A stretch of DNA of 64,000 nt, from the sequence record PQ471516.1; one strand, given 5' to 3'. This DNA comes from Escherichia phage Turkey5. This document shows, in pieces, positions 22,004 through 22,625 of the stretch (positions within the stretch are counted from its first letter, which is position 1; the number at the start of each line of letters is the position of its first letter). The translations under genes were made by a program, and so were the position numbers. A model generated the notes under the pieces. The model saw only the letters and a program-made list of their open reading frames with translations. It did not search any database and was not told the DNA's origin.

Positions 22004-22527
22004 ATCCTGAAAGGTTCCATAAGGAAATGATTAAGACCTAATCCACTCGAAAAGTAGAGGGTAGTTGAGTAGTCCTTTCAGTACGAACAGCAAAAGAAAC
22101 CCGTCAGATGTGGGCATAGTTTGAACCCCTCACGGCAATGCGGCTGTATAAAGAACTCCGATAAGCACACAGAGAGTTCCTAGATAGACATATAAGGATC
22201 GCACCTTACGAGATTTGCTAAGGGAGATTTCACTTTGAAATGCGGTCGTAATTTATACAATATAGTTGCGTCCAAAATTTGTGAAATCAAATACAAGTAC
22301 TGTTCATATGGTATTTGTATTATGTGTCGGGATGTTTAAGACCGACGACCGTTGCTACAAGAACCGCAATAGAGAGAAACAGAGCAACCCGCTTTCGCCC
22401 CAGTACTGGGAATTTGTGATATGAATATGTGAAGACCATCAGCGTCAAACTTTTTGTTCTTTCCCCTGCGGGGGGATGAAATATGTTCAAACAAATCCCG
22501 TCAATATTAATTAAACTACTAATAAAG

Positions 22528-22556
22528 TTGAATTAGACATGCGAAGCGTGTATAAT
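22528..22556 (+). promoter_or_regulatory. Sigma70-like promoter (TTGAAT-17 nt-TATAAT)
   Basis: -35 TTGAAT 22528-22533, -10 TATAAT 22551-22556, upstream of gene at 22626. Confidence 0.55.
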
Positions 22557-22625
22557 TCAACCGATTTTTATTGAGTGCTAACGAGATAAAAGTCGTGTAC
22601 ATCCATTGATGTTTCCATAGGAATA

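Follow-up and report, generated by a model that had tools for sequence, protein, structure and literature searches.

A family of large structured RNAs encoded in gene-free gaps of jumbo phage genomes and in integrative islands

The largest stretch free of open reading frames (ORFs) in a 64,000-nucleotide (nt) window of Escherichia phage Turkey5 (PQ471516.1), a jumbo phage of the 121Q/PBECO4 group (Asteriusvirus), lies at 21952-22625 (674 bp). Here, we report that this gap is, with near certainty, a structured RNA gene of a new family. Judged from sequence comparison, it is a stand-alone gene with a conserved core of approximately 0.5 kb, reaching approximately 0.6-0.7 kb with its leader and tail, and its RNA would work via its folded structure, neither through a protein product nor as double-stranded DNA. 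Stated in layers, the explanation that we favor with moderate confidence is a structured RNA that is transcribed on its own, acts in trans, and serves in the conflict between phage and host.

An earlier sequence-only prediction had marked 22004-22625 as a segment without any ORF of 60 amino acids (aa) or more, bounded by a terminator and a promoter, and had named a structured non-coding RNA, a replication origin, and a packaging site as candidate functions. Indeed, 21952-22625 was clear of such ORFs on both strands, the longest being of 56 and 52 aa on the - strand. However, the proposed limits were too narrow: the unit begins at a promoter at 21940, and the "bounding" terminator is downstream of that promoter.

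Conservation and paralogues of the gap in jumbo phages

When the gap alone was used as the query for blastn, 61 phage records were matched, with 86-98% identity in Asteriusvirus; the lack of conservation that the original prediction had named as a possible outcome was thus not observed. Identity of approximately 70% over about 22037-22516 was found in Cronobacter phage GAP32, Pectobacterium phage CBB, Serratia phage BF, Yersinia phage fHe-Yen9-04 (Yen9-04), Salmonella phages Munch and 7t3, Klebsiella phage fENko-Kae01, and Erwinia and Xanthomonas phages, a range that spans Mimasvirus, Eneladusvirus, and relatives. By megablast, the window region 21000-23800 showed 97.4% identity to Escherichia phage vB_EcoM_JNE01 and approximately 80% to 121Q, PBECO4, G17, and phAPEC6. 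In this wider region, the similarity to 121Q-like phages started at the end of the upstream gene and continued through the gap; the upstream gene lay outside the match except in the closest relative, and the gap is more conserved than this protein gene. The gap (690-740 bp) lies between hypothetical genes of approximately 270 and 175 aa, upstream of Dam methylase and cytidylyltransferase genes, except in Xanthomonas phage XaC1, of which the best match is in a different context.

Scanning IMG/VR with exact patterns and then searching with the profile uncovered further full-length copies in the same genomes; one pattern, CGACCGTT...ACCCGCTT, was not specific enough and gave mostly chance matches. 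Each jumbo phage genome carries at least 3-4 paralogues, all on one strand and each in its own gene-free gap of 0.7-0.8 kb. They are located at 90.3, 192.8, and 326.7 kb in 121Q and at 24.6, 174.3, 260.4, and 334.7 kb in Yen9-04 (all on the + strand); GAP32 and CBB have at least three copies each, and two metagenomic genomes of approximately 360 kb have four each. No second copy was found within the 64-kb window. The neighbors of the RNA unit are unrelated between copies and are even on the opposite strand in some, with no constant protein-coding neighbor. In 121Q, for example, one copy comes after a sigma-factor gene, and a different one is flanked by endonuclease VII and baseplate-hub genes on the opposite strand.

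Paralogues within a genome are 71-78% identical, and the window copy shows 93% identity to its 121Q orthologue and 68-71% to orthologues in other genera. From these values, the duplications are considered to be old and each copy to have been kept. Furthermore, alternative versions of the peripheral hairpins are exchanged between paralogues.

Compensatory changes, strand, and coding tests

The profile constructed from the aligned gaps of 16 phages matched the window end to end over the conserved core of approximately 480 nt (22032-22512, + strand) with 428.6 bits and an E-value of 4.6e-129 (nhmmer). In all DNA collected for the analysis, this profile gave 95 full-length matches, of which 74 were distinct.

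Covariance analysis across related phage genomes, which the original prediction had suggested as a check, indicated that base pairs are kept by compensatory changes. The RNAalifold consensus of 27 aligned copies contained 58 pairs, of which 27 showed double changes that compensate each other. Next, 11 helices were named from an all-against-all column scan, using alignment A3 of 53 distinct copies from all lineages. Standard pairs occupied 98.4% of the 2,843 cells of the 55 tested pairs, compared with 77.6% after column shuffles and 40-47% when the 3' partner was slid by 1-3 columns. Double changes were found in 40 of the 55 pairs (575 cells versus 165 expected), and none of 500 shuffles reached the observed value on any of five covariation measures. 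Thus, 11 helices, among them two pseudoknots, have been preserved through compensatory changes.

Departures from Watson-Crick pairing were mostly G.U. Since the G.U pattern, exemplified by C-to-U changes in the hairpin at 22461-22475, fits the + strand only, the RNA is read from the + strand. Folding of 21974-22575 gave a z-score of -3.1 for the + strand and -1.1 for its complement.

No conserved reading frame was found in the gap homologues, and hence no conserved small protein gene of the kind that would have spoken against the original prediction. The sole recurrent start site, located after the G-run, opens peptides in at least two frames and of differing lengths, with only 2-4 codons in some copies and none in 121Q copy a, and the nucleotides are conserved whatever the frame. 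Taken together, conservation, covariation, strand asymmetry, and the lack of a conserved frame strongly support the structured RNA among the candidate functions. The presence of several dispersed copies in each genome makes a packaging site a poor fit.

Copies in integrative islands

Metagenomes and one genome per species were also scanned, which revealed approximately 50 more copies. In at least 12 contigs, an integrase is followed by the RNA, then by a CI-like repressor (helix-turn-helix and S24 peptidase) on the opposite strand, and then by a Ner/Cro-like protein. Depending on the contig, the integrase is either a large serine recombinase or a tyrosine recombinase. One island type was bounded by walking out from an island protein; the insert, of approximately 11 kb, is flanked by an rlmI-like gene and yccX/tusE. 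It runs, in order, through genes for a serine integrase and three small membrane proteins, a gene-free gap of 1,049 bp (which holds the RNA in the matching contig L201), and genes for CI, a Ner-like protein, a 286-aa membrane protein, an LprI-like protein, resolvase, and KwaA-KwaB (Kiwa). A variant island with DarT-DarG is present in Silvania hatchlandensis, and the island of E. coli LR-29-1 (10.7 kb, between ffs and ybaA) has DUF4326, DUF488, and OB genes. In the commonest island type, the RNA unit runs head-on into the CI gene.

In the E. coli island, only the RNA unit matches any phage, with 80.6% identity to the 174.5-kb copy of Serratia phage BF. The island RNAs, one copy per island, keep the A3-invariant columns and their pairs. 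At least three groups can be distinguished among them, and each group is closest to a different phage paralogue type (84%, 75%, and 84% identity versus 66-73% to the window copy). A copy was present in two of 5,426 complete E. coli genomes, unannotated in RefSeq. Defence and family libraries applied to the island proteins beside the RNA were informative only for integrases, CI/Ner-like regulators, resolvase, Kiwa, and DarTG, and no replication or packaging genes were seen in the islands. These islands of approximately 11 kb in Enterobacteriaceae could be an undescribed satellite-like or defence-island family.

Examples of the islands are contigs L363-L366 (e.g. L363:2699-13585), L246:1368-10803, and L248:7959-18303. 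The family core comprises the integrase, the RNA, the CI-like S24 repressor, the Ner/Cro-like protein, small membrane proteins, and resolvase, and the cargo varies. In one island type, a near-perfect palindrome, CCTATAAATATC-N5-GATATTTATAGG, lies approximately 60 nt upstream of the RNA promoter (L201:~7960-7990; also L172, L204, L143, and L177); it could serve as an operator for one of the island regulators (CI or the Ner-like protein) or mark where the integrase transcript ends. Another observation concerns one island type (L189, L205, L150, and L155) in which tandem, near-identical promoters approximately 65 nt apart precede the RNA, namely GTGAAAT-N-TGGTATAAT and then ATGAAAC-N-TGGTATAAT.

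Promoter and 5' region of the unit

The gap is predicted to be one transcription unit on the + strand, consisting of a promoter, a hairpin with a U-run, a leader helix, the core, and a structured 3' tail. The consensus scan placed the promoter at 21940-21967 on the + strand, with a GAGACA -35-like box (21940-21945), a 16-nt spacer, and the extended -10 box TGATATAAT (21959-21967); it scored 10/12 with TG as a sigma70-type extended -10 promoter. The promoter overlaps the end of the upstream gene, the stop of which is at 21951. All paralogue and island copies have TGAAAC or TGAGAC, 16-18 nt, and TGnTATAAT or TATACT at the equivalent place. TGnTATAAT is three-fold enriched in the window (20 sites versus 6.5 expected, 16 of them on the + strand), mostly with a TTGACA-like -35 box; because of this, the promoter of the RNA unit appears to be the ordinary sigma70-type promoter of the phage. 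The enriched sites resemble a set of host-polymerase promoters of the phage, probably early ones. These sites span 2497-53547 of the window (e.g. 7189, 18433, 20168, 27722, 36897, 42384, and 52426), and boxes such as TGGACA, TGAACA, and TAGACA stand 17 nt upstream of most of them.

The hairpin AAGGUGAUAGC-AGAG-UUGUUAUCACCUU followed by U7 (21970-22003, + strand) begins 3 nt past the -10 box and would form the 5' end of the RNA. This is the strong terminator that had been predicted at the left edge of the segment, and the hairpin itself was borne out (12 pairs at 21970-21997, U-run to 22003, -15.5 kcal/mol, z-score -5.6). It has both elements of an intrinsic terminator, a G+C-containing hairpin and an immediate U-run, and looks like one serving the upstream gene. 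Because the conserved extended -10 promoter lies upstream of it, the hairpin would belong to the unit, either internally or as its very first part. It is kept, with differing stem sequences, in almost all aligned orthologues of the paralogue type designated "b". This hairpin-after-promoter layout is specific to the "b" type, which follows a co-oriented gene; the other types have no hairpin there, some having a terminator upstream of the promoter and others no such hairpin nearby.

In the 5' leader (22000-22035, + strand), folding gave the helix UUUAAUC (22000-22006)/GAUUAAA (22029-22035), which encloses a conserved CUGWWWGR and a small hairpin (22015-22018/22023-22026). By eye, this helix covaries between types (UUAAUC/GAUUAA, AAACU/AGUUU, and CAAUC/GAUUG), and AAYYCUGWWWGR is conserved in all paralogue types.

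Fold of the core

All of the following elements are on the + strand. A hairpin at 22039-22065 with the loop GAAAAGUA forms a three-way junction with the hairpin at 22069-22084 and the next helix. The hairpin at 22069-22084 (helix 1) has the form GUA...UAC with UGA on its 5' flank and GAA on its 3' flank, and two of its three pairs have double changes (UA 30, AU 16, and CG 7; 100% paired). Helix 2, ACAGC (22087-22091)/GCUGU (22143-22147), is also 100% paired, with double changes in three of five pairs. Enclosed by it are two invariant elements, the CCGU/ACGG pairing and the strand CACGGCAAUGCGGCU, together with a swappable peripheral hairpin. The peripheral hairpin (A3 columns 160-205; 22103-22130 in the window) occurs in at least three unrelated versions, GGCAUAGUUUGUACC, GUACUAGCAGUCAUACAAA...GACAUAAGAC, and, in islands, CCCGAGCG. 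The mosaic spread of these versions over paralogue types and genomes suggests module exchange between copies. Helix 3 is a variable hairpin, GAACUC/GAGUUC, at 22153-22179, in which all three counted pairs have double changes; in the RNAalifold analysis, six of its six pairs covary.

Helix 4 is the long hairpin AAUACAAGUACUG-UUCAUAU-GGUAUUUGUAUU at 22290-22321 (-13 kcal/mol, z-score -4.9), with double changes in 10 of 11 pairs. Its loop UUCAUAU (22303-22309) pairs with AUAUGAA (22419-22425) to form pseudoknot 1 (22303-22425), which has seven pairs, six of them covarying (99.7% paired), and is stacked on the helix CGCAA (22365-22369)/UUGUG (22414-22418), where five of five pairs covary (98.9% paired). 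These are helices 5 and 8 of the covariation test. Pseudoknot 2 (22351-22396; helices 7 and 9) is formed by GUUGC (22351-22355) and GCAAC (22384-22388), the latter strand lying within the loop of the helix GAGAG (22372-22376)/CUUUC (22392-22396). The two helices are 100% and 99.6% paired, respectively, and GUUGC/GCAAC, GUUGU/ACAAC, GUUAC/GUAAC, and GUCAU/AUGAC illustrate the covariation.

The first invariant CGUCA motif is at 22443-22447 (A3 columns 596-640). This first CGUCAG is followed by an inserted terminator-like hairpin with a U-run in all island copies and in most paralogue types other than that of the window, which has just a U-rich stretch at this place (22451-22462). This stretch is followed by the G/C hairpin UUCCCC-UGC-GGGGGG (22461-22475; helix 11), a stable hairpin already noticed near 22462 by the original prediction (-12.7 kcal/mol, z-score -2.9), and then by a near-invariant AUGAAA. 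The hairpin has five pairs (97.7% paired) and is kept in 53 of 53 aligned copies, and all of its variation is one-sided, C to U giving G.U. The second invariant CGUCA motif, at 22499-22503 within CAAAUCYCGUCA, consists of invariant columns in alignments A1-A3.

Among the 53 copies, the invariant or near-invariant unpaired stretches are GAUAGACAUAUA, UAAGGGA, CACGGCAAUGCGGCU, GACCGU, ACCCGCUU, the two CGUCA motifs, and GGGGGAUGAAA. Long-range pairing of the CGUCA motifs with GAUGAG, AUAGAC, or the 22303 loop was considered and rejected, as it involved invariant bases only or showed no covariation by eye. A loop palindrome, UGUACA, was also rejected as a dimerization site because it is not conserved.

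The 3' tail

The structured 3' tail of the unit extends over 22527-22600. Its main hairpin (22527-22572, + strand) is GUUGAAUUA...UAAUUCAAC with the apex GC-GAA-GC, followed by CGAUUUUUAUU; the inverted repeat at 22527-22561 had a free energy of -16.6 kcal/mol and a z-score of -5.0. A promoter had previously been assigned to 22528-22556. Although a TTGAAT-17-TATAAT match is present there, it coincides with this hairpin. Most copies, read by eye, have a tail hairpin at this position with the loop GAACGWAGUG or GCGAAGCG, and a second tail hairpin in other paralogue types has four of eight pairs changed on both sides, with G.U tolerated. The end of the tail (22575-22625, + strand) contains a weak hairpin at 22575-22600, of which the fold was not significant (z-score -0.95), and then the ribosome-binding site (RBS) of the next gene. 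Since the tail beyond the internal terminator covaries, RNA structure continues past that terminator, and it follows that either read-through matters or there are two RNAs.

Possible mode of action

In the explanation that we favor, host sigma70 RNA polymerase would make the RNA early in infection, and constitutively in cells carrying an island. The RNA would fold into a compact pseudoknotted body in which the invariant unpaired nucleotides may make tertiary, ligand, or catalytic contacts. Its target in trans may be a macromolecule of the host or of the phage, with the RNA serving as a ribozyme, as the RNA component of a ribonucleoprotein, or as a decoy of high affinity.

Several points weigh against this explanation. 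Its weaker step is the putative trans action, for which the evidence is one of context. Several copies directly precede co-oriented genes, which is compatible with a leader role. The strong terminator-like hairpin just 3' of the promoter in the "b" type could abort most transcripts. In most other types, the internal terminator-like hairpin splits the unit, and the covarying tail then implies read-through or a second RNA. Finally, the 5' and 3' ends of the RNA are predictions from sequence, and no RNA-seq study of this phage clade was found in the literature searched.

A bolder proposal is that the RNA belongs to a new class of large catalytic or self-assembling RNAs on which Rak2/121Q-like jumbo phages depend, and that SOS-inducible islands acquired different paralogues at least three times, as a decoy or for a satellite-like ride. 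We regard this as unlikely. If true, the RNA would be a contested molecule in a three-way conflict among phage, island, and host.

Alternative explanations

The first alternative concerns the RNA as a handle in the conflict: jumbo phages would need the RNA, and islands would have captured it as a decoy for a phage factor or as a replication or packaging signal; in the reverse form, phages would have copied the island RNA to neutralize it. The separate affinities of the three or more island groups to different phage paralogue types are in line with this, as is the finding that the RNA unit is the only DNA common to an island and phages. The islands carry Kiwa or DarTG and an SOS-type CI repressor with no visible replication or packaging genes, and the hosts of the phages and islands are all Enterobacterales. 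However, this support is purely contextual, and the proposal is compatible with the trans-acting RNA that we favor; only the integrase, CI-like, and Cro/Ner-like proteins are common to all island variants, and no island was seen within a phage genome or a virion-derived contig. Moreover, the proposal addresses the use of the RNA in islands, not its chemistry. We consider it improbable.

A replication origin with a structured primer RNA, in the style of ColE1 RNA II or the R-loops of T4 oriF/oriG, is improbable. In such an origin, the 3' part of the RNA (the U-rich stretch, G6 run, and AT-rich linker) would stay hybridized to the template and prime the leading strand; several origins would serve the 350-kb genome, and the one in an island would let an infecting phage replicate that island. 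The dispersed copies in uniform orientation, at least 3-4 per genome, would suit this, and so would the order of promoter, approximately 0.5 kb of structured RNA, conserved G-run, and AT-rich linker. The same can be said of islands of approximately 11 kb that have a complete RNA unit, the only part shared by an island and phages, and yet no recognizable replication gene. On the other hand, the copies are unevenly spaced, no iterons or tandem repeats were found at the locus, and no homologue was found on any of 72,556 plasmids. The cumulative GC skew has no inflection at the locus, although phage skew follows transcription. The covarying tail lies downstream of the supposed RNA-DNA transition, and a constitutive sigma70 promoter firing an origin in a chromosomal island would be harmful. 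Furthermore, described origin transcripts are not known to show comparably extensive conservation of pseudoknots and unpaired nucleotides across ancient paralogues.

In kind, ColE1-type RNA II is similar in its strong promoter, an RNA of approximately 0.5 kb whose fold matters, a G-run in the 3' part, and a link to mobile replicons. It differs from the RNA described here in that the latter has no plasmid homologue, has a covarying tail beyond the G-run, and is multi-copy in a virulent phage. No conserved unit of the antisense RNA I type was seen, although no dedicated search was made.

We assign the same low likelihood as to the origin to a cis-acting operon leader, in which the RNA would modify its own polymerase (as in HK022 put/EAR) or attenuate, read-through expressing the downstream block. 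The HK022 put/EAR sites resemble the unit in that a folded RNA lies just 3' of a promoter and is followed by terminator-like hairpins. Such hairpins lie inside the unit, after the promoter in the "b" type or after the first CGUCAG in most others; polymerase would have to read through the internal terminator to reach the covarying tail; and in several types a co-oriented gene comes right after the tail, as in the window with the gene at 22626, the Dam methylase, and the cytidylyltransferase. Nevertheless, a leader is expected at a constant position, and the downstream genes vary between paralogues, being on the opposite strand in 121Q copy c and met head-on, as CI, in the commonest island type. 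Known cis-antiterminator RNAs are approximately 70-120 nt, whereas the present RNA is several times larger (approximately 500 nt) and contains more than one pseudoknot.

Unannotated small protein genes or a functionless decaying remnant can be dismissed: depositors' records leave the homologous gaps empty or fill them with 30-56-aa ORFs (as in SHEFM2K, Hallingskeid, and SD-2_S15), but these vary in strand and position and have no PHROG match, peptides from the recurrent start site, where they exist at all, do not share a frame, the substitutions are pairwise-compensatory and not codon-like, and a remnant would not stay approximately 70% identical across genera while the upstream gene leaves the DNA match.

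Comparison with known RNAs

The original prediction had also proposed an Infernal/Rfam scan, which brought no identification. In the 64 kb, no Rfam 15 family matched at its gathering score, including GOLLD, ROOL, OLE, HEARO, raiA, RNase P, tmRNA, 6S, SRP, group I/II introns, and hammerhead. At E <= 10, the window gave four weak matches to unrelated small-RNA families (10-26 bits versus gathering scores of 50-376), and ten other copies gave no consistent match. As for the non-canonical tRNAs that had been left to be ruled out, ARAGORN found neither a tRNA nor a tmRNA in the 64 kb. No description of the RNA was found in the literature searched, including a 2023 catalogue of viral structured-RNA candidates. 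The family is thus new as a class, although the large phage-associated structured RNA of unknown function is already a recognized category.

GOLLD and ROOL, which are Rfam families, are large structured phage and prophage RNAs whose biochemical function is open, and they occur mainly in Firmicutes and related hosts. They are the closest in kind to the jumbo phage RNA, sharing large size (>450 nt), complex folds supported by covariation, carriage by phages or integrated elements, location in gene-free gaps, and apparently independent genes. In contrast, the jumbo phage RNA is found in Enterobacterales, with at least 3-4 diverged paralogues per genome and no detectable sequence or structure match to either, and there is no tRNA gene in the 64-kb window. 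OLE, HEARO (the IscB/IsrB omega RNA), and raiA are similar in size class and in their many conserved unpaired nucleotides; however, apart from the lack of an Rfam match, no conserved neighbor such as oapA or iscB accompanies the present RNA, the neighbors of which vary between copies.

Other identities were considered and rejected. A group I intron is contradicted by flanking ORFs that are complete and differ between copies and by the lack of an RF00028 match; although a resemblance to T4 td was seen by eye, the space that P4-P6 would have to occupy, between the 5' strands of the pseudoknot helices, measures only approximately 9 nt. The 5' junction CAG(A/U)UGA-hairpin-CGAA recalls a hammerhead but differs at two conserved core positions, its third helix pairs downstream and not back to the 5' side, and no Rfam match was obtained. 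ToxI-like systems have a tandem array of repeats, approximately 34-36 nt each, with a terminator and then a toxin gene behind it. ToxI RNAs and their phage-borne mimics are comparable in that an RNA is common to a defence locus and the phages meeting it, and a terminator follows the RNA in most of the present types. However, a ToxI-type antitoxin RNA was rejected, since there are no tandem repeat units and no consistent downstream toxin gene or other conserved downstream protein, and the fold is single and complex.

In the Pseudomonas jumbo phage PA5oct, a distant relative, RNA-seq defined the non-coding RNAs ncRNA001-004 in ORF-free regions, and ncRNA001 and ncRNA002 (236 and 451 nt) are abundantly transcribed throughout infection (PMC7318152). 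These are a precedent for highly expressed long non-coding RNAs in the wider phage group, with no structure described for them. They were rejected as homologues, as the family profile gave no nhmmer match in 5-25 kb of PA5oct, the stretch that includes ncRNA001 and ncRNA002.

Few large RNAs have complex folds that are conserved, and those with an established function include ribozymes and key parts of ribonucleoproteins. The present RNA is set apart from other orphan RNAs by its several ancient paralogues per jumbo phage genome and by its place in the core of islands with Kiwa or DarTG. It is carried by culturable phages of E. coli, Salmonella, Klebsiella, and plant pathogens that are studied for therapy, which makes it experimentally accessible. 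The findings point to an RNA-level layer in the phage-defence conflict that has been overlooked by protein-centered surveys. They also correct the annotation: gaps left empty or holding spurious 30-56-aa ORFs are an RNA gene.

Other features of the locus

The gene following the unit (ORF 22626-23168, RBS AGGA at 22619-22622) matches phrog_16210. On its 3' side are a Dam-type DNA methyltransferase gene (23185-23712) and a cytidylyltransferase-like gene (23709-24248), both identified from their annotated homologues in 121Q and relatives. The 174-kb paralogue of Yen9-04 likewise directly precedes a DNA methyltransferase gene, with a DPPY motif. The gap had been described as locally GC-richer, and this is true in direction but weak: its G+C fraction is 0.395 against a window mean of 0.356 +/- 0.027 (+1.4 standard deviations), and 8% of equal-sized windows match it. 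The runner-up among the ORF-free stretches of the 64 kb, 57763-58205 (443 bp), contains two small ORFs and a terminator. The part at 57763-58065 is ordinary, with a 59-aa ORF (57763-57942), a hydrophobic ORF of approximately 26 aa (57966-58045), and the terminator at 58043-58065.

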